Both the position numbers and the translations under genes were made by a program. Below the pieces are notes generated by a model. It did no database searches and was not told the DNA's origin. It was given only the letters and a program-made list of their open reading frames with translations. Source: an uncultured Candidatus Saccharibacteria bacterium (GTDB lineage Bacteria > Patescibacteriota > Minisyncoccia > Phycocordibacterales > UBA2100). Taken from it: a stretch of DNA of 64,000 bases. Location: contig CAZELA010000001.1 of assembly GCA_964512835.1 (NCBI GenBank), positions 425,372 through 489,371 on the forward strand, written 5' to 3'. Shown here one piece after another: positions 1 to 60,070 of this stretch (position 1 is its first letter; the number at the start of each line of letters is the position of its first letter).

Positions 1-648
1 CACTGGCCGGAGCGCGAAACGAACTTTTTTGGAATACGCGGCTTTGAAAAGATGGGGTCCCTCGGTACTCCGATCGAGGAAACGCTTGAGGCGCTTTCGG
101 AAATCGTTCGGGCGGGGAAGGTTCGATATATCGGTATTTCAAATGAGACACCGTGGGGGCTTACTGAATACCTGCGGCTCGCAAAGGAAAAGAACCTGCC
201 GCGGGTTGTCACTATCCAAAATCAGTACTCGCTGCTGAATCGGACATTTGAGATCGGTCTGTCGGAGATATGTATGCGTGAAGGGGTCGGCCTGCTTCCG
301 TATTCGCCCCTATCAAAGGGGGTACTTTCCGGAAAGTATCTCGGCGGCGTGATACCTGAAAATTCGCGGTTTGCATATTCGTTGCGCGACATCAATCGCT
401 ACAATCCACCCCAAGCACAGGAGCCTATCCGTAAATACGCGGAACTTGCCCGTTCTATCGGTATAAGTACGGCTGAACTTGCGCTCGCATGGGTCAATTC
501 GCGCCCGTTTGTCACATCCAACATTATCGGGACGCGTTCAATGGAGCAAATGATAACCGATGTCGGTTCTGCGGATATTGAGCTCTCGGCAGATGTGCTC
601 GCTGAGATACAAAAAATCCATCTAGAGCTTCCTGATCCGCATCACTAG
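1..648 (+). CDS. aldo/keto reductase, C-terminal part (5' end lies outside window)
   Basis: Translation holds AKR motifs (RYIGISNETPWGL ... LLPYSPLSKGVLSGKY); the frame is open from position 1 and stops TAG at 646-648. Confidence 0.7.
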   Translation, partial: HWPERETNFFGIRGFEKMGSLGTPIEETLEALSEIVRAGKVRYIGISNETPWGLTEYLRLAKEKNLPRVVTIQNQYSLLNRTFEIGLSEICMREGVGLLPYSPLSKGVLSGKYLGGVIPENSRFAYSLRDINRYNPPQAQEPIRKYAELARSIGISTAELALAWVNSRPFVTSNIIGTRSMEQMITDVGSADIELSADVLAEIQKIHLELPDPHH

Positions 649-38221: not shown

Positions 38222-38992
38222 TTATACGTGTTTCGTAAGCTCGATACACATAAAGAGCGGAAACTCTTTGCGCGCCGTGTCTTCCGCCAGACTTCGCGGA
38301 CCCCTCTCACTTTTCTTGTGTGAGATCCACTCTTCCAGTCGGGTAATCGCAAACCCGCCGTTTGCAAACGCTTTCATATAATCCTGCATTGATCGATGAA
38401 ACGACCATGTCGAGGCCGCCGTCTTTTTTCCCGGCGTCATGTCGATCGCCGCTCGGGATTGCGACAAATAGCTATCGACACGTCGATACTGCACTTTTTC
38501 CTTGTCATCCCACCCCCATGCGGTCTGCTTCGGAATGCGGAACGCGGGATGATTTAACACAAACACAGCCCGCCCTTTCGGCTTCAAAACACGTGAGCAC
38601 TCTTTCATGACAGCATCGAGCTTCTCCATATTTTGAAGAGCGAGTACACAGGTCAGCGAATCAAAGTATCCGCTCTTTACACCGAGCATTGCCTCTGCCG
38701 GCGTTACGTGAAAGGTAATGTCCGGAGACGCGTGTTTCGCCTTGGCGATCAATTCTTTTGCGATATCTGCGCCTTCTACATACGCACCCGACGCGTCGAT
38801 CAATCGCGTAAAGTACCCCTCTCCGCACCCGATATCGAGCACACGCATCCCCTGCTTAGGAGCCAGAATGCGCATCAAATTCGGAGCGATGACTTTCGCG
38901 TGGTAGGTGTCGTCACCTTTCAGGTGCTCTTCGTACCATGCGGCAACACCGCCCCACGATGTTTTCTTGTCGGTATTCTTTTTTGTAGCCAT
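38222..38992 (-). CDS. class I SAM-dependent methyltransferase
   Basis: Motif I VLDIGCGEGYF and post-I acidic residue. 256 aa. Confidence 0.75.
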   Translation of the reverse strand: MATKKNTDKKTSWGGVAAWYEEHLKGDDTYHAKVIAPNLMRILAPKQGMRVLDIGCGEGYFTRLIDASGAYVEGADIAKELIAKAKHASPDITFHVTPAEAMLGVKSGYFDSLTCVLALQNMEKLDAVMKECSRVLKPKGRAVFVLNHPAFRIPKQTAWGWDDKEKVQYRRVDSYLSQSRAAIDMTPGKKTAASTWSFHRSMQDYMKAFANGGFAITRLEEWISHKKSERGPRSLAEDTARKEFPLFMCIELTKHV

Positions 38993-43217: not shown

Positions 43218-44738
43218 ATGAAGTTTTTCGGATTTACGAAGCTTTTCGCAAGCAAACCGGACCCGAAACCCCTCGAATCCGCGCTTCCTATCTTTTTGCA
43301 CAATACGCTCGGTAACGAGAAACAGACTTTCACCCTACCCTCTCGGGTACATACGGTGCGCATGTACAATTGCGGACCTACGGTCTACGGTCCGCAGCAC
43401 ATAGGCAATCTGTCTATGTTCGTTTTTACCGACGTTTTGAGACGTATGTTTGAGTACAACGGTTTCCCCGTTCAGCAGGTCATCAATTTCACCGACTTCG
43501 GTCATCTCTCCGGCGACAACGAAGGCAATGCTGATGAAGGAGAAGATCGCATGACCAAAGGGCTCAAGCGAGAAGGCATGAAGCCGACGCTCGAAAATAT
43601 GAAAATCCTTGCCGGTCGCTATGCGGAACTCTTTCTGCACAATCTGGGCGAGCTAAACATCAACACCCAAAAAATAACATTTCCGTATGCGAGCGAGTTC
43701 ATACCGGCGCAGATTGCAATGATCCGAGCACTCGAAGAGAAAAGCTATGCATACAAAACTAAGGACGGTGTGTATTTTGACACCTCGCAGTTCCCCGACT
43801 ACGGCAAGCTCGGCAATATCGATCTCGCCGGTCTTAAGGAAGGTGCCCGCATCGGTGTATCAGAGGCAAAGCGTAATCCGACCGACTTTTTGCTGTGGAA
43901 GTCCGATAAAAAAATCGGGTGGGAATCTCCGTGGGGCTTAGGCTTCCCGGGCTGGCACATCGAATGCTCTGCAATGATCCGCGCAACACTCGGAGAACAG
44001 ATTGATGTTCACACCGGCGGCATCGAACACATCCCGGTGCATCACAACAACGAAATCGCTCAATCCGAGTGTGCAACCGGCAAGAAGCCGCTTTCGCGAT
44101 TCTGGTTGCACCGCGCGCACATTCAAATAGACGGCGGTAAAATCGCAAAATCCAAAGGCAAAGCCATCTACCTAGCGGATGTGACGGCAAAAGGATTCCA
44201 TCCGATTGCGCTCAGATATCTGTTTCTGGGTGCCCACTACCGCACGTCGATGAATTTTACGTGGGATTCTCTAACGGCAGCGCAGAATGCGTATGCGCGC
44301 CTCGTTGCGACCCGACTTTCATTCGTTACCGAACCGGGCCCGGTTGCCGAATCGTTCCGCGCTCGTTTCAACGAGCGGATAAATGACGACCTCGATACCG
44401 CTGGAGCGATTGCAATTGTCTGGGAAATGCTCAAAGACGGCGATCTCGACAGTGCCTCAAAACTCTCGACACTGCTTGACTTTGACCGCGTACTCGGTCT
44501 GAATCTTGCGATACCGGACGCCGCAGCGATTGCACTTGCAAAGGCTGAGTCAAAAGATTATTTACAACCCGAGGAATATTCGGAACAGATTACCGACATA
44601 CTGACGCGGCGCGATGAGGCGCGCGCTCAAAAGAACTGGACGACAGCCGACGCGCTTCGCACAGAGCTTGATGTTCTTGGTCTTGGCGTAGAAGATGCGG
44701 AGAGCGGGGCTCGCGTATACCGCAAAGCGACAAAGTAG
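43218..44738 (+). CDS. cysS: cysteine--tRNA ligase
   Basis: YNCGPTVYGPQHIGN (HIGH), the Zn-binding Cys context, and KIAKSKG (KMSKS). 506 aa. Confidence 0.9.
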   Translation: MKFFGFTKLFASKPDPKPLESALPIFLHNTLGNEKQTFTLPSRVHTVRMYNCGPTVYGPQHIGNLSMFVFTDVLRRMFEYNGFPVQQVINFTDFGHLSGDNEGNADEGEDRMTKGLKREGMKPTLENMKILAGRYAELFLHNLGELNINTQKITFPYASEFIPAQIAMIRALEEKSYAYKTKDGVYFDTSQFPDYGKLGNIDLAGLKEGARIGVSEAKRNPTDFLLWKSDKKIGWESPWGLGFPGWHIECSAMIRATLGEQIDVHTGGIEHIPVHHNNEIAQSECATGKKPLSRFWLHRAHIQIDGGKIAKSKGKAIYLADVTAKGFHPIALRYLFLGAHYRTSMNFTWDSLTAAQNAYARLVATRLSFVTEPGPVAESFRARFNERINDDLDTAGAIAIVWEMLKDGDLDSASKLSTLLDFDRVLGLNLAIPDAAAIALAKAESKDYLQPEEYSEQITDILTRRDEARAQKNWTTADALRTELDVLGLGVEDAESGARVYRKATK

Positions 44739-47630
44739 TTACTCCGCAACAACAAAGTTCACGAGTTTCTTCGGGACCACAATAACTCGCGTAATAGTTT
44801 TCCCCACCAGGCGGCTCGTCATGACTTCTCGCGCATTAATCTCAAGATCCTCCTTCGTGGCGTCTTTTGATATCGTGAACTCGCCGCGCAACTTTCCGTT
44901 GATCTGAATTGCGATCGTTACATCATCGAATTCCAATTTACTCGGATCAGGTTCCGGGAATTTCTCAGTCAAAATCGACGTCTCCTTGCCGAGCACATCG
45001 TGCCACAACTCTTCGGTAATATGAGGTGCAAACGGCGACAACACCTTTAAGAAGTCGGCATAGATATCCGTGGTTACAGTCTGCTCCTTTTGTTCCATAA
45101 GATTCAACAAAGACATCATCTGACTTATTGCCGTATTGAACTTGAAGCCGTCAATATCTTCGCCGATCTTTTTGATCGCGATGTGCATCGAATTATCGAG
45201 GTACGCCGTGATGCCGACGCTCTCCGAGGCAGGCTGTACCTTCTCTTGCAGCTTCCAGACTCGTTCCAAAAATCGTCTTGATCCGATCATGCTCTGTGTG
45301 TTCCATGCAATGGAATCCTGGAACGGGCCCATGAACATTTCGTACACTCGCATCGTGTCGGCGCCGTACATTTCGACGATGTCGTCGGGATTAATCACAT
45401 TGCCGTAGCGCTTGCTCATTTTTCGTCCGTCTTCGGCCATAATGAGCCCCTGGTGTCGAAGTTTCAGGAACGGCTCATCGAAGTTTACATATCCCATATC
45501 GCGAAGCGCCTTGGTATAGAATCGGGCATACAACAAATGCAGAACCGTGTGCTCTGCGCCGCCGATGTACAGATCGACCGGCAGCCAATCACGCAAGACG
45601 TCTTGAGAGGCAAATTCCGTGTCGTTGTTCGGGTCCGCGAAGCGGAAAAAGTACCACGACGAGCACGCAAACGTGTCCATGGTATCGATCTCCGGCGTCC
45701 ATCCCTCACCGAATATCCTTTCCGTTCGCTCTTTTAGTTCTTTCGACGAGCCTAAGGGCGATGTGCCCTTCGGCAGGTACTCGACATCGGTCGGGAGGAG
45801 CCACGGTAAGTGCTGCTCAGGAATAGCATGCGGCACCCCCTCAGGGTCATACACGATCGGAATCGGGGCACCCCAGTATCGCTGCCTGGAGATCAGCCAG
45901 TCACGAATACGGTACGTTTTTTTCACGCGACCGAACTTCTCTGTCATTGCAACTTTCGCATCAGCGACCGACATCCCGTTAAATGCTCCCGAATTCACGA
46001 GGACCTGATCTTCGCCGTGCAGCGCGTCACTGTATGCGCCGACGCGACCCAGTGCGAGATCAAGGGCAAGCTGATTATTATGGAACAATCCTTGTTTCTG
46101 AGCCTCTTCGTAGGTCATCCAGCATGTGTCGTGTTTAGCGCGCTCCTCTTCGGACAGCGGGCCTTTTTGATCACTTTCGAGCTCCATCAAGATCGGCGTG
46201 TCGAGGCGGGCACGCCACTCAGCTTTGTGTTCTGCATAGTAGTGCGATTCAACCGCCAGCGGCGATACATAGACCGGACGCGCGCGGTACCCCGTCTCCT
46301 CGAGCACCTCACGAACTGCTGCGTCCTCCACACTCTCGCCTTCATCCACGCCGCCGATCACGTTCGAAAACCACTTATATTCCTTCCACTTAAGAAACAG
46401 CAGCCGACCGTCGTCGTTTCGGACGACTGCATTTATCGTATTGCGAAACACAGCGTCCGGCCGCTTGTTCTCGGGGCCAAATACAGGCATGACTACCTGT
46501 CGGATCGGGAGATCATAGGCTCGCGCAAACGCGTAATCTCTGTCGTCGTGTGCAGGCACCGCCATAATTGCGCCCGTACCATACTGAGCAAGCACGTAGT
46601 CAGCGATGAATAGTGGAATCCGCTCGTTGGTTGCGGGGTTGATGGCCATCACGCCTTTCAGTTGTACGCCGGTCTTCTCTTTGTCGGCAGCCATTCGTTC
46701 GATGTCCGCCTTTTTCTTCGACTGCGCTACATATGCGGCCACCTCGTCATTATTCTCGAGTACCGTTGCGTGGCCGAGCGCGAGCGTAACCCACTGATGC
46801 TCAGGAGCGAGCACAAGATATGTTGCGCCGAACAATGTATCCGGGCGCGTCGTAAAAACCGTAATGTGGGCCCGCATGCCGTTCTCGTCGGTTTTCGTAT
46901 TCACTGATTCATCGCCAAAATCGAGGAAGAAGTCGATTTCCGCGCCTTCTGATCGGCCGATCCAGTTCCGCTGATTGATCTTGGTAGATTCCGGCCAATC
47001 AATAGTGTCCAAATTGTCCGCAAGCTCATCCGCGTAGTCAGTGATCTTATAAAACCACTGCTCAAGATCTTTCTTTTCAACGACGGCACCCGAGCGCTCC
47101 GCAGTACCGTCCGGCAAAACCTGTTCATTCGCAAGGACAGTCTGGTCTACCGGATCCCAGTTTACGAGCGCTTTCTTTTTGTAGACGAGTCCTTTCTCAA
47201 AAAACTTCGTGAACAGCCACTGCGTCCAGCGGTAATAATCCGGGCGATGACTTCCTATCTCGTGCGCCCAGTCATAGGAAAGACCGAGATTCGATATTTG
47301 TGATTTGAATGTTGCGATGGACTCGTCAGTCGTCTGCTGCGGCGGCTTGCCGGTTTTGATCGCGTAGTTTTCCGCAGGAAGACCGAACGCATCCCAGCCC
47401 ATCGGATGCAGCACGCGATGACCCTCCATTCTTTTTTTTCGGGCTACGACATCCGAGCCGATGTAGCCCTTCGGATGCCCCACATGCAGTCCCGCGCCGG
47501 ACGGATACGGAAACATATCGAGCACATAGTATTTAGGCTTAGAGAGGTCCGTATCGGTTTTGTTAGCACCGGACTTTTCCCATTCTTTTTGCCATTTCTG
47601 CTCGACTTTTTTGTGGTCGTACGACTTCAT
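44739..47630 (-). CDS. leuS: leucine--tRNA ligase carrying an embedded NUDIX hydrolase domain (aa approx 392-515; nt 46086-46457)
   Basis: LeuRS HIGH (PYPSGAGLHVGHP), the CP1 editing domain (TRPDTLFGATY) and KMSKR are present. Between the CP1 C-terminus (YGTGAIMAVPAHDDRDYAFA) and the NSGxFNG region lies about 125 aa with a full Nudix box GGVDEGESVEDAAVREVLEETG. It is a single continuous 963 aa ORF. Confidence 0.85.
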   Translation of the reverse strand: MKSYDHKKVEQKWQKEWEKSGANKTDTDLSKPKYYVLDMFPYPSGAGLHVGHPKGYIGSDVVARKKRMEGHRVLHPMGWDAFGLPAENYAIKTGKPPQQTTDESIATFKSQISNLGLSYDWAHEIGSHRPDYYRWTQWLFTKFFEKGLVYKKKALVNWDPVDQTVLANEQVLPDGTAERSGAVVEKKDLEQWFYKITDYADELADNLDTIDWPESTKINQRNWIGRSEGAEIDFFLDFGDESVNTKTDENGMRAHITVFTTRPDTLFGATYLVLAPEHQWVTLALGHATVLENNDEVAAYVAQSKKKADIERMAADKEKTGVQLKGVMAINPATNERIPLFIADYVLAQYGTGAIMAVPAHDDRDYAFARAYDLPIRQVVMPVFGPENKRPDAVFRNTINAVVRNDDGRLLFLKWKEYKWFSNVIGGVDEGESVEDAAVREVLEETGYRARPVYVSPLAVESHYYAEHKAEWRARLDTPILMELESDQKGPLSEEERAKHDTCWMTYEEAQKQGLFHNNQLALDLALGRVGAYSDALHGEDQVLVNSGAFNGMSVADAKVAMTEKFGRVKKTYRIRDWLISRQRYWGAPIPIVYDPEGVPHAIPEQHLPWLLPTDVEYLPKGTSPLGSSKELKERTERIFGEGWTPEIDTMDTFACSSWYFFRFADPNNDTEFASQDVLRDWLPVDLYIGGAEHTVLHLLYARFYTKALRDMGYVNFDEPFLKLRHQGLIMAEDGRKMSKRYGNVINPDDIVEMYGADTMRVYEMFMGPFQDSIAWNTQSMIGSRRFLERVWKLQEKVQPASESVGITAYLDNSMHIAIKKIGEDIDGFKFNTAISQMMSLLNLMEQKEQTVTTDIYADFLKVLSPFAPHITEELWHDVLGKETSILTEKFPEPDPSKLEFDDVTIAIQINGKLRGEFTISKDATKEDLEINAREVMTSRLVGKTITRVIVVPKKLVNFVVAE

Positions 47631-47698: not shown

Positions 47699-48664
47699 CT
47701 AGGACTGAACCGTCGGATTACCTTTGGGGAAAATGGGATACCGCTCCGGATCGATTGTTCGTTCATAGCATGTCTGCGACGCACTGTGCTGCCAGTTTAG
47801 GTCGGCATCATTCATGCCGTAATGCATGGCTTCAGTTGCCTGTGCGGGAGCAATGTCTGCAGTTTCAACATTGAAGGTTGCGCACACCTCAAATGAATAC
47901 GGCTCGCGCGTGACACGATAGCCGTAATCCTGTCCGGTCTGCGCATCTTTCGGAACAATCATGCCGCTAAGCGGATCGGACAGTTCTGCAAGATTTGCCG
48001 GCAGACGGCCCTTCGTTTGATAGAAATTCGTCACCTGATACTGAATGCTCTGCAGGTCAGTTACCTTCTGGGAATCAAGCCGCTGCAATCGGATCTGATT
48101 CGGCGAGCCGATAATCAGGAACCCCGACACAATCGTTGCGAGTACGAGCACACCCGCAGCAATACCGACAGAGCGGGCTCGGCCCGGGAATTTGATCCAG
48201 TACCCCCAGTAGTCCGCGAGGAAGTGCATAAATACCGCAGCTGCCACCAAGAGCACCGTTGCTACCTTGAGCACAAAGCGCACCGTCACTTCGCCTCCCA
48301 AAAAGTAATTGATGAGCCAGATGAGGTCGACCGCCATCGCGACACCCGCTATGAACAGTGTGAGATAGAGTGCCCAGCGCCGGATCCAGAGATCGGCCTT
48401 GCCGTGGTCTTTGATGATGTCGCGGCGAATCAGGTTCAAAAGCAAGACTGTAATCGGGACGAGCACGATGAGGCTCGCCATCGAGAAACGAATGGCAGCG
48501 GAAAACGGGTCGTAGTTGTACTGCTGCCCGTCGAGCACATCCGGAAACGCCTGATTAATGTACGCGAATATAAGGGTCAGGAACGATCCGATGCTCCAAT
48601 ACAGAGCAACCATTGCACCTGCCCACAAAAAGAAGTCTTTGGGCGTAACTTTATGAGTATTCAT
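47699..48664 (-). CDS. hypothetical polytopic membrane protein with extracytoplasmic C-terminal domain
   Basis: About six TM helices then a 130 aa soluble tail. Start chosen at ATG 48664 (MNTHKV), although the ORF is open to 48760. Confidence 0.5.
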   Translation of the reverse strand: MNTHKVTPKDFFLWAGAMVALYWSIGSFLTLIFAYINQAFPDVLDGQQYNYDPFSAAIRFSMASLIVLVPITVLLLNLIRRDIIKDHGKADLWIRRWALYLTLFIAGVAMAVDLIWLINYFLGGEVTVRFVLKVATVLLVAAAVFMHFLADYWGYWIKFPGRARSVGIAAGVLVLATIVSGFLIIGSPNQIRLQRLDSQKVTDLQSIQYQVTNFYQTKGRLPANLAELSDPLSGMIVPKDAQTGQDYGYRVTREPYSFEVCATFNVETADIAPAQATEAMHYGMNDADLNWQHSASQTCYERTIDPERYPIFPKGNPTVQS

Positions 48665-48744
48665 GATGAAACTATAACGTACGGCGTACCCGTTGACATA
48701 CAAGCGTAGCCGTTGCACTATTCGTCCGGCAATGGGAGGGTCTA

Positions 48745-49182
48745 ATGGCCGCACTATCACTCGAGTCAGGAGTCAGTCAGTTGGCTCTGCTCGGTATCCG
48801 GGGCTACCGTAAGTATATTTCGCCCTATAAGGGATTCCGCTGCGCACACCATGCGCTGCACGATCAGGGTTCATGTTCCACGTTCGGTCTCCAAGCGTTT
48901 CAGGAGAATCGGCCGCTCGAAGCATGGCGAAAGCTCCGCGGAAGGTTCGTCGAATGTCGCCTCGCCTACGAAGCACTGATGCGCGAGACCAAGGAGGAAC
49001 GCGAGGAGCGCAAGCGCAAAAAGCGCACGGAAAGGCGGGAACAGTATTCCGAATACTGCATGCCGCTGGAAGCATGTCCTCCGTCCGACTGCGCGATGGT
49101 CGACTTCACGCCCGATAAGAGCTGCGACATGCCCGACGTCTCATGCGAAGTCGGCACCTGCGACATCGGTTCGTGCAGCTAG
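48745..49182 (+). CDS. putative YidD-like (membrane protein insertion efficiency factor) domain protein with Cys/Asp-rich C-terminal extension
   Basis: GYRKYISPYKGFRC...CSTFGLQAFQE loosely resembles YidD ([23 protein letters not shown]). It is followed by a charged coiled region and a tail with eight Cys (CMPLEACPPSDCAMVDFTPDKSCDMPDVSCEVGTCDIGSC). Confidence 0.35.
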   Translation: MAALSLESGVSQLALLGIRGYRKYISPYKGFRCAHHALHDQGSCSTFGLQAFQENRPLEAWRKLRGRFVECRLAYEALMRETKEEREERKRKKRTERREQYSEYCMPLEACPPSDCAMVDFTPDKSCDMPDVSCEVGTCDIGSCS

Positions 49183-55948: not shown

Positions 55949-57760
<1,812 letters not shown>

Positions 57761-57764
<4 letters not shown>

Positions 57765-58360
57765 ACAAATTCGGCCGCGAGAATTTCCCTGGCCTTTCTG
57801 AGCGCCCTCCCGCGATGACTCACACTATCGATCTCTTCCACCGTCATTTCTCCGAATGCGCGACCAAGGTCATTGGAAATAAAGAGCTGATCGAAACCGA
57901 AACCCCCGTCGCCCAGCGGCTCGGTTGCGAGCACGCCCTCGGTCACACCATATGCAAATCGAACTTTGTCCGTAGTCGGATCGTACATCGCTATCACATC
58001 ACGGTAGCGACAAGTACGTTTTTCAGTCGGCACGTCTTTCATCAAATCCAGCAACTGCGCGACTTTTTCCGCACGAGTTCCTTCAAAATAATGTGCCGTC
58101 TGGACCCCCATAGCCTCGGGAAACGCATCAAGCTCGAGACCGGAGTCGTCTGCAACTGCAAGCAGGTTTGTGTGTTTGCCGTACACAAACGCCTTGATGA
58201 TTGCGTGCGCTTCGTAGGTCGTCCCCGGTTCCTCTACGTCGAGTCCGGCAAGCTCCGGAAAATCATTGAGGGTTTTGAACGTAAACGGCGCACCCTTGAG
58301 CCCTTCCATAAGACCGGGAATCTTTCCCTTGTTTCCGGTTGCCAACAGCAGTTCACGCAT
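57761..58360 (-). CDS. rdgB: non-canonical purine NTP pyrophosphatase (RdgB/Ham1 ITPase)
   Basis: LLLATGNKGKI ... EEPGTTYEAHAIIKA ... ADDSGLELDA are the Ham1/RdgB signature blocks. Start at MREL (58360); the ORF is open to 58435. Confidence 0.8.
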
Positions 58361-58370
58361 AGGCACGATA

Positions 58371-58703
58371 TTACAGCGAGTTCGGATCGATCGCGAATCC
58401 GTGTTTTCGCGCGATCGCAGCAAATAATTCCGCACGGGATTTAATAACCGCGTTGTACTCGGATAACGCTCGCTGATCCTGCAGTTCCTGCTGCATATGC
58501 GCCCGCGAACTTCTGAACAGCATCTCCATATCCGAGGACATGTGATTTTGGATATCGTCTTCGTAGAGTGCAGGCGTCGGCGCTTCGGAAAGCGTGTTCA
58601 GTACACCCTTCATGTGATCGCTTACGTAATCAGCGGCATCGAGCGTGTCGTGCATCTCTTTGTAGGCACTTTTTTGAGCAGCTGCGCGATCTTCGAGGGT
58701 CAT
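58371..58703 (-). CDS. hypothetical protein
   Basis: 110 aa acidic helical ORF between the Nudix and rdgB genes. Confidence 0.4.
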   Translation of the reverse strand: MTLEDRAAAQKSAYKEMHDTLDAADYVSDHMKGVLNTLSEAPTPALYEDDIQNHMSSDMEMLFRSSRAHMQQELQDQRALSEYNAVIKSRAELFAAIARKHGFAIDPNSL

Positions 58704-58706
58704 GCG

Positions 58707-59153
58707 CTATTTGTTATCAAATCCGTAATTGCTGAACGGAATTCCCCTTCGGATACAGCTGAGCGCCTGCGCAATGTACGGAATGGTGTTCGCAGGCAGA
58801 TCGTCCTCGGCGTAAAACCACAGATCAGAGCATTTTTCCGGTTCTTTGTTTGAAAGCTCGCCCTCCCACGCTTCTGCTTCGATGTACACGTCGAAGTAGG
58901 TACGGTCCGGGAACTGACGCTGCATCACGTGCACGATCTTGAGTTCACTGTTCGAAAGATCAAGATTCGCTTCTTCAAACACCTCGCGAATCAATGTCTG
59001 CTCTGCCGTCTCCCCGCGTTCAATATGACCGGAGACGAGTCCGTAGTTTCCGTCCTCGTGACCCGTGTTCTGCCGCTGAGAAAGCAAAACAGTATTCCCG
59101 TCTCCACGAAGTACCAGAAACGATGCCCCGTGGAACAGAAATTTGTCGCTCAT
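58707..59153 (-). CDS. NUDIX hydrolase (inside ATP synthase operon)
   Basis: Nudix box SGHIERGETAEQTLIREVFEEANL. It sits 3 nt from atpG. Confidence 0.8.
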   Translation of the reverse strand: MSDKFLFHGASFLVLRGDGNTVLLSQRQNTGHEDGNYGLVSGHIERGETAEQTLIREVFEEANLDLSNSELKIVHVMQRQFPDRTYFDVYIEAEAWEGELSNKEPEKCSDLWFYAEDDLPANTIPYIAQALSCIRRGIPFSNYGFDNK

Positions 59154-59155
59154 GG

Positions 59156-60070
59156 TTATCGCATCGCTTCCATGCCGGAAGTGATTTCGGATACCTCGCG
59201 GGTGATTGCAGCCTGGCGCACTTTGTTGAACGTGCGAGTAAGGTTATGCGCCATCTCCTTTGATTTATCGGTCGCGCTTTTCATGGCGACCATACGGGCC
59301 GAATGTTCGGACGCCTTGCTCTCAAGCAGTGCGTGATACACGGCTATGTTCAAAAGCTTCGGAAGCAATACCGAGAGCACGGCATCGGCATCCGGTTCGA
59401 TTGTGTACGAGGTAGGCGGAAGCGACGGTTCACCCGACGGTGCATATTTGCCTCGCGCCGGGCGGATACCCGCGACGGTTTCGCGCATGATCGCCTGGGT
59501 GACCGGAATGATCTGGCGAGAGGTCGGTTCCTGTTCAAAGGTTGTTACGAAGTTCTGGTACGCAACAATCGCGGTACCGATCTCGCCGCTTTCGTGCCAC
59601 GACAAAATCAGGTTCGTGACCTCGCGCATTTCTGACTCGGTGACTTCGTCACTCTTGTTGAGCTGACGAATGCGGACGTCATACCCGCGAGAAGCAAAAT
59701 GGTCGCCGCCGCGTCTGCCGATACATGCCATGACGACATCTCCTTTGGAAAGGCCGCGGGACTTTATCTCGTCCTCCACCTTCCGGATGACTGCACTGTT
59801 CACGGAGCCCGCAAGACCCTTGTCGGACGTGATCACAATGAACGCCGTCTTGCCTGCGCGTGCCGACATAAGCGGGTGGCGCGACATATCAGCGGTCCCC
59901 GAGACACGCTCAAGTACCGTGAGGGCCGCAGCAGCGTACGAACGGCCGGAAAGAGCACGCTCCTGCGCCTTGCGCATCTTTACAGCAGAAACAGCCTCCA
60001 TCGCGTGAGTTACTGTTCCCGTTTTTTTGTACGAGATGATCTTGGATTTGATTGCTTTAAGATTCGCCAT
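59156..60070 (-). CDS. atpG: F0F1 ATP synthase subunit gamma
   Basis: MANLKAIKSKIISYKKTGTVTHAMEAVSAVKMRKAQ is the gamma N-terminus. 304 aa. Confidence 0.9.
   Translation of the reverse strand: MANLKAIKSKIISYKKTGTVTHAMEAVSAVKMRKAQERALSGRSYAAAALTVLERVSGTADMSRHPLMSARAGKTAFIVITSDKGLAGSVNSAVIRKVEDEIKSRGLSKGDVVMACIGRRGGDHFASRGYDVRIRQLNKSDEVTESEMREVTNLILSWHESGEIGTAIVAYQNFVTTFEQEPTSRQIIPVTQAIMRETVAGIRPARGKYAPSGEPSLPPTSYTIEPDADAVLSVLLPKLLNIAVYHALLESKASEHSARMVAMKSATDKSKEMAHNLTRTFNKVRQAAITREVSEITSGMEAMR

Follow-up and report, generated by a model that had tools for sequence, protein, structure and literature searches.

A putative Nudix hydrolase domain nested within the CP1 editing domain of a Patescibacteria leucyl-tRNA synthetase

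Aminoacyl-tRNA synthetases rank among the most strongly conserved enzymes. The leuS gene in the 64,000-nucleotide stretch of Candidatus Saccharibacteria DNA analysed here (the window) raises the question of why a leucyl-tRNA synthetase (LeuRS) would carry a second, hydrolase-like domain, and what that domain might do. An initial annotation had described a complete Nudix domain with a canonical Nudix box, in frame within the 963-aa leuS ORF. This description holds: PF00293 matched the insert with E=7e-15 (55.6 bits against a cut-off of 21.1), and the box fits the pattern GX5EX7REUXEEXGU exactly (G426-x5-E432-x7-R440-E441-V-L-E444-E445-T-G447-Y448). The host protein scored 941.3 bits with TIGR00396 (leuS_bact; cut-off 548.4), in two matched stretches that flank the insert. 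Neither a second leuS nor any tRNA gene was found in the 64-kb window. A summary of all features can be found in Table 1.

Table 1. Features of the Nudix-bearing leuS gene and its upstream neighbour (nucleotide positions in the window; residues of the LeuRS protein).
Feature	Residues (aa)	Position	Strand	Remarks
DUF5671 membrane-protein gene		47699..48760	-	directly upstream of leuS
leuS ORF		44739..47630	-	963 aa; bacterial-type leucyl-tRNA synthetase containing the nested Nudix domain
HIGH motif HVGH	49-52	47475..47486	-	synthetic site
CP1 editing domain, N-terminal part	221-385	46476..46970	-	
CP1 T-rich motif TTRPDT	260-265	46836..46853	-	
CP1 GTGAIM motif	351-356		-	
CP1 motif AHDDRD	360-365	46536..46553	-	conserved editing Asp
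Nested insert	386-533	46032..46475	-	Nudix domain and short linkers
Pfam NUDIX match (PF00293)	396-513	46092..46445	-	profile positions 3-121/134
Nudix box GGVDEGESVEDAAVREVLEETGY	426-448	46287..46355	-	E432, R440, E441, E444, E445
YYAEHK, X-loop position	464-469	46224..46241	-	aromatic pair 16-17 residues past the box, then near-invariant K469
CP1 editing domain, C-terminal part	534-565	45936..46031	-	PF13603 positions ~144-183, recovered upon excision
NSGAFNG	546-552	45975..45995	-	within the C-terminal CP1 part
KMSKS motif KMSKR	737-741	45408..45422	-	
Anticodon-binding domain	813-926	44853..45194	-	PF08264, E=2e-21

With regard to the location of the domain, it had been placed at 46086..46457 (aa 392-515), between the end of CP1 and the NSGxFNG block. 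This placement had to be revised. In the native protein PF13603 matched aa 221-383 with profile positions 1-143 of 185 (E=1e-54), and the match became continuous over positions 1-183 of 185 when aa 386-533 were removed in silico. Because this excision restores a continuous match, the Nudix insert is nested within CP1 itself. Alignment with Thermus thermophilus LeuRS, which the initial annotation had suggested for mapping the insertion point, showed that residues 382-537 take the place of a 13-residue loop (Tt 364-376). In homologues this site is normally occupied by just a short loop (0-32 residues), in line with the earlier remark that typical LeuRS have only a short linker there. The protein had also been described as about 125 aa longer than usual, matching the size of the insert. 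The insert is in fact ~148-156 aa long and the agreement in length is coincidental: a segment of ~55 aa (Tt 581-635), which we take to be the leucine-specific domain, is absent from the window LeuRS, and the length excess over E. coli and Thermus LeuRS is therefore small. Compensation for this missing segment was rejected as an origin of the insert, since insert-free LeuRS of the same clade (757-821 aa) have no extra residues there either. An intein or mobile-element origin was likewise set aside, as Pfam shows only LeuRS and Nudix families.

The Nudix domain in this LeuRS is real. An artefact, be it an assembly chimera, a frameshift joining two genes or a decaying pseudogene insert, has a negligible probability. 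At least 10 contigs, obtained from independent JGI and SRA samples and alike in gene order, encode the identical protein, which rules out the chimera that the initial annotation had considered, and the reading frame is continuous without a break in composition. The insert is moreover retained in more than 100 divergent LeuRS. Since dS was saturated, pN and pS are reported instead of dN/dS; the insert had a pN of 0.07-0.12 against a saturated pS of 0.8-0.9, equal to the neighbouring CP1. The insert is thus under purifying selection of the same strength as CP1, which together with near-invariant catalytic glutamates rules out decay into a pseudo-Nudix. Within the clade of the window, insert identity was 76-87%, compared with 76-81% for LeuRS outside CP1.

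The same architecture recurs well beyond this genome. The insert was present in 85 of the 120 closest LeuRS homologues from a whole-protein search. An exhaustive profile search with the Nudix insert returned 181 clusters (50% identity) at E<=1e-30; among the best 150 of these, 114 were LeuRS or LeuRS fragments, LeuRS and short free-standing proteins made up nearly all matches, and no host other than LeuRS was recognised. A word-index search with the insert only, in which the cluster of the window protein is represented by an 85-aa fragment, gave weak free-standing Nudix matches and no LeuRS. Approximately 35-40 of 80 GTDB loci, drawn from a single-sequence scan that is biased to 'EVLEETGY' boxes, had the domain embedded in LeuRS; their MAG labels comprised Paceibacterota, Saccharibacteria, Berkelbacteria, Moranbacteria and Buchananbacteria, and one locus was a Bacilli-type LeuRS with an embedded Nudix. 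The family is present in LeuRS in one to three copies; its insertion sites, three or more in number, lie within CP1 or next to it, and the same Nudix subtypes occur at differing insertion positions. Members of the family also abut the gene. One Nudix-bearing leuS has a free-standing paralogue 2 bp upstream, locus L025 has one upstream of leuS, related contigs have one between the DUF5671 gene and leuS, and at locus L018 an ORF consisting of a CP1 fragment plus Nudix adjoins an insert-free leuS. Judged from these sequences, the LeuRS-Nudix architecture is widespread in Patescibacteria and entered public databases with the Rifle genomes at the latest (one example, UniRef100_A0A1F4Y1K9, bears the public name 'leucine--tRNA ligase' and nothing else), and the Nudix family is specifically tied to LeuRS in this group. 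As to the initial remark that no such fusion had been described, a full-text literature search indeed found no description (in PMC12077802 Nudix appears merely via a reference-list citation, and neither 'tRNA synthetase' nor 'tRNA ligase' occurs in the Nudix clan survey PMC5389931), but the fusion is widespread in public databases and not a one-off.

Whether the domain could be active was judged from residue conservation over 261 LeuRS-embedded Nudix copies. The degeneration of the REx2EE glutamates across homologues that the initial annotation had contemplated was not seen: the metal-binding residues are kept in 260/261 (E441), 252/261 (E444) and 261/261 (E445) copies. Conservation was also high for G426 (256/261), K469 (260/261), R473 (232/261) and W504 (255/261). 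E432 was found in 210 copies (Q in 37) and R440 in 212. The changes E432Q and R440M/A/K occur together in ~15-20% of embedded copies, sometimes with E444Q, and some copies may for that reason be catalytically altered. This conserved subtype is what speaks for a non-catalytic module, in which the Nudix fold would bind nucleotides or RNA, or play a structural or regulatory part (for example by sensing an alarmone or ApnA, or by contacting tRNALeu), and so modulate CP1 movement or editing. In multi-copy LeuRS a canonical copy is paired with a Q-type copy, a combination that resembles catalytic/pseudo-enzyme pairs; the domain is predicted to sit rigidly on the mobile CP1 (see below); and the Nudix clan does include non-enzymatic members (PMC5389931). 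For a pure binding module, however, one would not expect E441 and E445 to be essentially invariant and E444 to be 97% conserved even in Q-type copies. The box of the window copy is fully canonical, and the free-standing homologues, ~160 aa in length, have the appearance of ordinary small Nudix enzymes. We therefore hold a non-catalytic role to be decidedly unlikely.

Structural models were consistent with a compact Nudix enzyme. AlphaFold2 gave a confident model of the insert (pLDDT 89.5, pTM 0.83) and of CP1 together with Nudix (pLDDT 89.9, pTM 0.85), with ordered linkers, and predicts a Nudix alpha/beta/alpha fold rigidly docked on CP1. The predicted CP1 part was 45-49% identical to solved LeuRS CP1 domains in a Foldseek search. 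With the insert model, Foldseek returned 532 PDB matches at E<=0.001, and the 50 listed were all Nudix with a probability of 1.00. The best of these were the Aquifex Ap4A hydrolase 3i7u, the Thermus Ap6A hydrolase 1vc8, the mycobacterial ApnA hydrolase MutT1/Rv2985, RppH, CT771 and NUDT2, with the Ap4A/Ap6A hydrolases edging out other compact Nudix proteins (RppH, MutT1, NudB) only marginally (E 1e-9 to 1e-7, 16-29% identity). Profile-to-PDB and NCBIfam matches were generic and below family cut-offs (NF006961, 24.7 against 103 bits; RppH models, 20-23 against 116-241 bits). ApnA hydrolases have a specificity tyrosine in the X-loop, ~17 residues past the box (Dunn et al. 1999, summarised in PMC5389931). 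By sequence spacing, Y464/Y465 of the window protein would occupy this position, 16-17 residues after Y448. Both X-loop positions were aromatic in 236 of the 261 copies, with Tyr at either one in 198 and often Phe. The NADH motif SQPWPFPQS and the CoA motif LLTxR... were absent from the window protein, as was the X-loop proline of ADPR enzymes (position 463 is His). The nearest solved structures, being Ap4A/Ap6A hydrolases, and the aromatic pair in the X-loop hint tentatively at a dinucleoside-polyphosphate-type enzyme.

Besides Ap4A and related products, the initial annotation had put forward the editing of mis-activated adenylates. In this reading, a form of pre-transfer editing, the Nudix domain would hydrolyse mis-activated aminoacyl-adenylates (such as Nva-AMP or Ile-AMP) that are released from the synthetic site. 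The location of the domain inside the editing domain is the sole observation in its favour. An aminoacyl-adenylate is a nucleoside monophosphate in acyl-phosphate mixed anhydride linkage and not a nucleoside diphosphate-X compound; HIT-family enzymes act on such adenylates, and we know of no Nudix enzyme that does. Free-standing Nudix paralogues also exist, and with intact motifs for post-transfer editing in CP1, no replacement of that activity would be needed. Pre-transfer editing by the Nudix domain is thus highly improbable.

The explanation that we prefer, at slightly better than even confidence, is a bifunctional enzyme: a complete LeuRS with a nested, putative Nudix pyrophosphohydrolase for nucleoside-polyphosphates, predicted to be docked on CP1. 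The LeuRS, with its intact HIGH, KMSKS and CP1 motifs, would charge and proofread tRNALeu as usual, and a compact, putatively competent Nudix domain would be seated in a surface loop of CP1. This module would hydrolyse a nucleoside-polyphosphate compound by the usual Mg2+-dependent mechanism, in which the Nudix box holds the polyphosphate chain for attack. Aminoacyl-tRNA synthetases produce ApnA as side products, and the most likely substrates would be ApnA from such side reactions or related non-canonical NTPs; LeuRS is not known as a prominent producer of Ap4A. For an organism with a minimal genome, fusion would make co-expression and co-localisation of a sanitising activity with an essential synthetase obligatory.

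Alternatively, the domain could be an active general nucleotide sanitiser (MutT, NTP-pyrophosphatase or similar) that has no link to leucylation and is housed in LeuRS because CP1 loops are permissive and nesting in an essential, constitutive gene is economical for the genome. Several observations on other hydrolases are consistent with this. Close relatives have an alpha/beta-hydrolase or Ham1 at CP1 site 1 and a HAD domain at site 2; locus L012 bears two Nudix domains of different kinds and, in the catalytic domain, a further insert of ~140 aa. The window itself contains three other free-standing Nudix genes, and its atp operon has a Nudix-Ham1-Nudix cassette that separates atpG from atpD, which shows a general tendency to join house-cleaning genes to core operons. 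With unrelated hydrolases at the CP1 sites and such a cassette in the atp operon, the association may reflect co-expression and not LeuRS chemistry. In addition, P0029 and the window protein are 86% identical in LeuRS outside CP1 and only 35% in the insert: the Nudix cassette was swapped between near-identical LeuRS backbones. A random permissive host, on the other hand, would not be expected to hold the same family at three or more positions and in up to three copies, with further members abutting its gene, nor is the near-restriction of the best 150 profile matches to LeuRS and short free-standing proteins, or the predicted rigid docking on CP1, readily explained in this way. We consider a sanitiser unconnected to leucylation rather unlikely.

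A more far-reaching version of the bifunctional enzyme can also be envisaged. The Patescibacteria CP1 might serve as a docking platform for nested hydrolases (one to three Nudix domains, including catalytic and Q-type pairs, alpha/beta-hydrolase, Ham1 and HAD), and so form a translation-coupled hub for metabolite sanitation in which Nudix directly processes ApnA or some other adenylate-derived nucleotide made by the synthetase itself, or else a nucleotide signal by which editing is gated. We regard this as speculative and unlikely; if true, it would constitute a new mechanistic layer of aminoacyl-tRNA synthetase quality control and not a passive fusion.

In these minimal-genome organisms, tRNA charging may be physically linked to the metabolism of nucleotides or ApnA, and Nudix nesting is conserved across much of the candidate phyla radiation. 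Since the Nudix domain moves among CP1 positions, multiplies, and gives way to or is accompanied by other hydrolases, the LeuRS CP1 can be viewed as a natural example of domain insertion tolerated by an essential enzyme, at several positions and with up to three copies. Annotation is affected as well, because the fusion proteins are named only 'leucine--tRNA ligase', and so is the logic of LeuRS-CP1-targeted inhibitors for bacteria that bear the Nudix domain.

When compared with known systems, the host part of the protein belongs to the same enzyme family as T. thermophilus (1H3N/2BYT) and E. coli (4AQ7) LeuRS: the alignment (E=5e-202 with 1h3n) covers the HIGH and KMSKS motifs, the T-rich motif and Asp of CP1, and the anticodon-binding and C-terminal domains. 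It differs from these by ~150 aa of Nudix in place of the 13-residue loop and by the absence of Tt 581-635. The Nudix part resembles 3I7U, 1VC8 (Ndx1) and human NUDT2 (TM 0.79-0.80 on the target, 25-29% identity), and has a canonical box and, by spacing, an aromatic residue at the X-loop position, but these are free-standing proteins of ~130-150 aa, whereas the window domain is nested in another enzyme. It also forms a sequence family of its own, with invariant K469 and W504, that reaches no curated subfamily model. Another class Ia synthetase with an extra catalytic domain is NF040702 ('isoleucine--tRNA ligase, N-acetyltransferase domain-containing'), likened here by description only; both the synthetase and the added domain are different, and the window protein scored 66 against 1999 bits, below its cut-off. 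Catalytic domains nested within an editing domain are, to our knowledge, undescribed in bacteria. Nudix domains are often duplicated or fused, as in the bifunctional NadM-Nudix fusion or in double MutT/Nudix proteins, and relatives of the window LeuRS likewise have two or three copies. The double proteins were reported by Lin et al. 2009, as cited in PMC5389931. The known Nudix fusions are joined end-to-end, whereas the Nudix domain of the window LeuRS is inserted within the fold of its host domain.

The window's leuS product was assigned unambiguously, on its sequence, to the bacterial-type leucyl-tRNA synthetases (LeuRS). It scored 941 bits against NCBIfam TIGR00396 (cut-off 548), carried the Pfam tRNA-synt_1, LeuRS editing (PF13603) and anticodon-binding domains, and matched Thermus thermophilus LeuRS (1h3n) with E=5e-202. 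The motifs of the synthetic site (HVGH 49-52, KMSKR 737-741) and of the CP1 editing domain (TTRPDT 260-265, GTGAIM 351-356, AHDDRD 360-365) were intact. Pfam also placed a NUDIX domain within this protein at aa 396-513 (E=7e-15; 55.6 bits, cut-off 21.1), and the Nudix box fitted its consensus exactly. Both results agree with the initial annotation, which had reported a Nudix domain with a canonical box at 46086..46457 (aa 392-515), and the LeuRS-Nudix observation is thus confirmed. The exact 963-aa sequence is present in a public collection under the name 'leucyl-tRNA synthetase', and no base-composition break was seen across the insert. An assembly artefact was ruled out, since independent JGI metagenomes and SRA runs yielded the identical protein on at least 10 contigs, in every case in one shared neighbourhood (YchF, a YidD-like gene, DUF5671, leuS and convergent cysS).

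With regard to these surroundings, cysS and leuS converge with zero intergenic bases and abutting stop codons, a junction with no space for a terminator; the cysS start is placed later by other callers (440 aa). The YidD-like ORF scored just below the cut-off for PF01809 and has a long charged, Cys-rich C-terminal tail; its opening codons (48745..48760) run into the start of the DUF5671 gene on the opposite strand.

Features of the window discussed in the text
Feature	Position	Strand	Remarks
Third free-standing Nudix, 166 aa	37709..38209	minus	PF00293 E=3e-20
Class I SAM methyltransferase gene	38222..38992		adjoins third free-standing Nudix
cysS	43218..44738	plus	
cysS/leuS abutting stop codons	44736..44741		
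leuS ORF	44739..47630	minus	encodes 963 aa
Site of missing ~55-aa segment	45408..45430 region	minus	aa 733-741; Thermus and homologue comparison
Nudix box	46287..46355	minus	aa 426-448; exact fit to GX5EX7REUXEEXGU
YidD-like ORF	48745..49182	plus	
atpD	55949..57337		
House-cleaning cassette in ATP synthase operon	57339..59153	minus	between atpD and atpG
Cassette Nudix, 141 aa	57339..57764	minus	
Cassette Ham1/RdgB	57761..58435	minus	PF01725 E=3e-41
Cassette small ORF	58371..58703	minus	
Cassette Nudix, 148 aa	58707..59153	minus	
atpG	59156..60070		

The interpretation in the initial annotation was partly supported: the architecture stood, but its insertion point, between the end of CP1 and NSGxFNG, had to be corrected. 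Thermus LeuRS aligned in three pieces (residues 1-381, 538-733 and 736-961 of the window protein with Thermus 1-363, 377-580 and 636-876), so that ~156 residues stand in place of the 13-residue loop at Thermus 364-376. In the native protein the PF13603 match ended at profile position 143 of 185; after in-silico deletion of aa 386-533 (the Nudix domain with short linkers, hereafter the insert) the rematched profile ran unbroken from 1 to 183 of 185. This continuity shows that the Nudix domain is nested inside CP1, between the AHDxRD and NSGxFxG segments, rather than following it. The window protein further lacks Thermus residues 581-635, which we take to be the leucine-specific domain, and this ~55-aa segment ahead of KMSKS was also missing in all those of the 120 closest homologues that span that region.

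Residue conservation was counted over 261 LeuRS-embedded Nudix copies. E445 was present in all of them, E441 and K469 in 260 each, G426 in 256, W504 in 255, E444 in 252 and R473 in 232, followed by R440 (212) and E432 (210, with Gln in 37). Against the two closest genomes pN was 0.07 and 0.12 for the insert and 0.10 and 0.12 for adjacent CP1, with pS saturated at 0.8-0.9; these similar values indicate purifying selection on the insert as strong as that on its host domain. AlphaFold2 confidently modelled the insert as a Nudix fold (pLDDT 89.5, pTM 0.83) and gave CP1 plus Nudix, again with confidence, as a single body of two domains whose linkers are ordered (pLDDT 89.9, pTM 0.85). The CP1 part of that second model matched LeuRS editing domains of solved structure.

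Of the 120 best LeuRS homologues, 85 carried an insert of 154-163 residues at the same position and one a 210-residue HAD domain; the other 34, which are 757-821 aa long, had 0-32 residues there. Their source names (Kaiserbacteria, Adlerbacteria, Paceibacterota) point to Patescibacteria. A profile built from 39 diverse inserts and searched against 1.84 billion representative proteins gave 17,356 matches at E<=0.001, a level that corresponds to generic Nudix, 729 at E<=1e-10 and 181 at E<=1e-30; the best 150 comprised 114 LeuRS or LeuRS fragments and 23 short free-standing proteins. GTDB species genomes were also scanned, with a bias introduced by the 'EVLEETGY' seed; copies embedded in LeuRS turned up in MAGs with the labels Paceibacterota, Saccharibacteria, Berkelbacteria, Moranbacteria, Buchananbacteria and Parcubacteria, and one in a Bacilli-type LeuRS (locus L056). 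Five contigs with Patescibacteria-type LeuRS-Nudix or related Nudix genes (L004, L015, L010, L022, L067) bear the MAG labels Woesearchaeota archaeon, Fimivivens or Muribaculaceae and are probably mis-binned.

At least three positions in or beside CP1 host the LeuRS-type Nudix family: site 1 between GRSEG and TTRPDT (Saccharibacteria-labelled loci L027-L031, L035 and L038 and protein P0143, among others), site 2 after AHDxRD, as in the window, and a third just ahead of DWPES at the CP1 edge, where P0138 has a tandem pair. Some LeuRS hold two or three copies, three being found in P0138 and P0139. The box has two subtypes, the canonical one (E...RE) and one in which E432Q is accompanied by R440M/A/K (Q-type), both of which occur free-standing and at differing positions; nearest neighbours group by subtype, not by position (copy 2 of P0138 shares 68-69% identity with Q-type domains at site 2). 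The subtypes tend to co-occur, for example in tandem pairs ahead of DWPES or, in L025 (809..1453), where a free-standing Q-type gene precedes a leuS with a canonical copy; this hints at a catalytic/variant pair. On the P0184 contig, with the YchF...DUF5671 synteny of the window, a free-standing paralogue lies 2 bp upstream of a Nudix-bearing leuS. Locus L018 (1175..4555) has an intact insert-free leuS (813 aa) and then a 281-aa ORF joining a C-terminal CP1 half with a degenerate Asp motif (VPAHIQLH), a LeuRS-type Nudix domain and INSKEYNG, followed by another Nudix-like ORF and RNase HII; it looks like a split or relic form of the nested architecture. Homologue P0029 shares 86% identity with the window protein outside CP1 and 76% within CP1, but only 35% in the nested Nudix, suggesting that closely related leuS genes have swapped Nudix cassettes.

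The chief alternative to a LeuRS-specific role is that the lineage habitually appends house-cleaning enzymes to core genes. Such a habit is suggested by unrelated hydrolases in the CP1 sites of close relatives, namely an alpha/beta-hydrolase (P0025, aa 245-435) and Ham1 (P0083, aa 252-394) at site 1 alongside a site-2 Nudix, and HAD replacing the Nudix at site 2 (P0063, aa 387-542), together with the cassette in the window's atp operon. The window holds three more free-standing Nudix genes, two of which flank the Ham1 gene between atpG and atpD. Locus L012 (a 1237-aa LeuRS, Moranbacteria MAG) likewise combines a different Nudix type at site 1 with the family type at site 2, and has an extra ~140-aa insert in the catalytic domain after the RDW...PVV segment; by eye only, this resembles an ASCH/PUA-like domain. 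The LeuRS-type family itself, however, is tied near-exclusively to LeuRS, recurs at several LeuRS positions and includes genes that adjoin leuS, all of which weighs against this alternative.

The initial annotation knew of no described LeuRS-Nudix fusion; our full-text literature search likewise found none, and a survey of the Nudix clan (PMC5389931) does not mention tRNA synthetases. The architecture is already in public databases, for example as UniRef100_A0A1F4Y1K9, whose name is simply 'Leucine--tRNA ligase'. A Nudix enzyme nested in LeuRS should interest aminoacyl-tRNA synthetase and CPR specialists, and is readily testable.

As to its substrate, specificity marks of Nudix enzymes lie in the X-loop ~17 residues after the box, where hydrolases of dinucleoside polyphosphates (ApnA) have Tyr (PMC5389931). 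The window protein has Y464-Y465 16-17 residues past the box, then the near-invariant K469; both positions of the pair are aromatic in 236 of 261 embedded copies, with at least one Tyr in 198. The NADH motif, the CoA motif and the ADPR proline are absent from the window's Nudix domain, which approached no NCBIfam equivalog cut-off. Given these marks and the Foldseek ranking, ApnA or nucleoside polyphosphates are rated the most likely candidate class of substrate, and the putative function is weakly consistent with ApnA hydrolysis. In that ranking the best PDB matches of the predicted insert were Aquifex Ap4A hydrolase (3i7u) and Thermus Ap6A hydrolase Ndx1 (1vc8), followed by mycobacterial MutT1 and the ApnA hydrolase Rv2985 and then by RppH, DR1025, CT771 and NUDT2, with a small lead of ApnA hydrolases over other compact Nudix enzymes.
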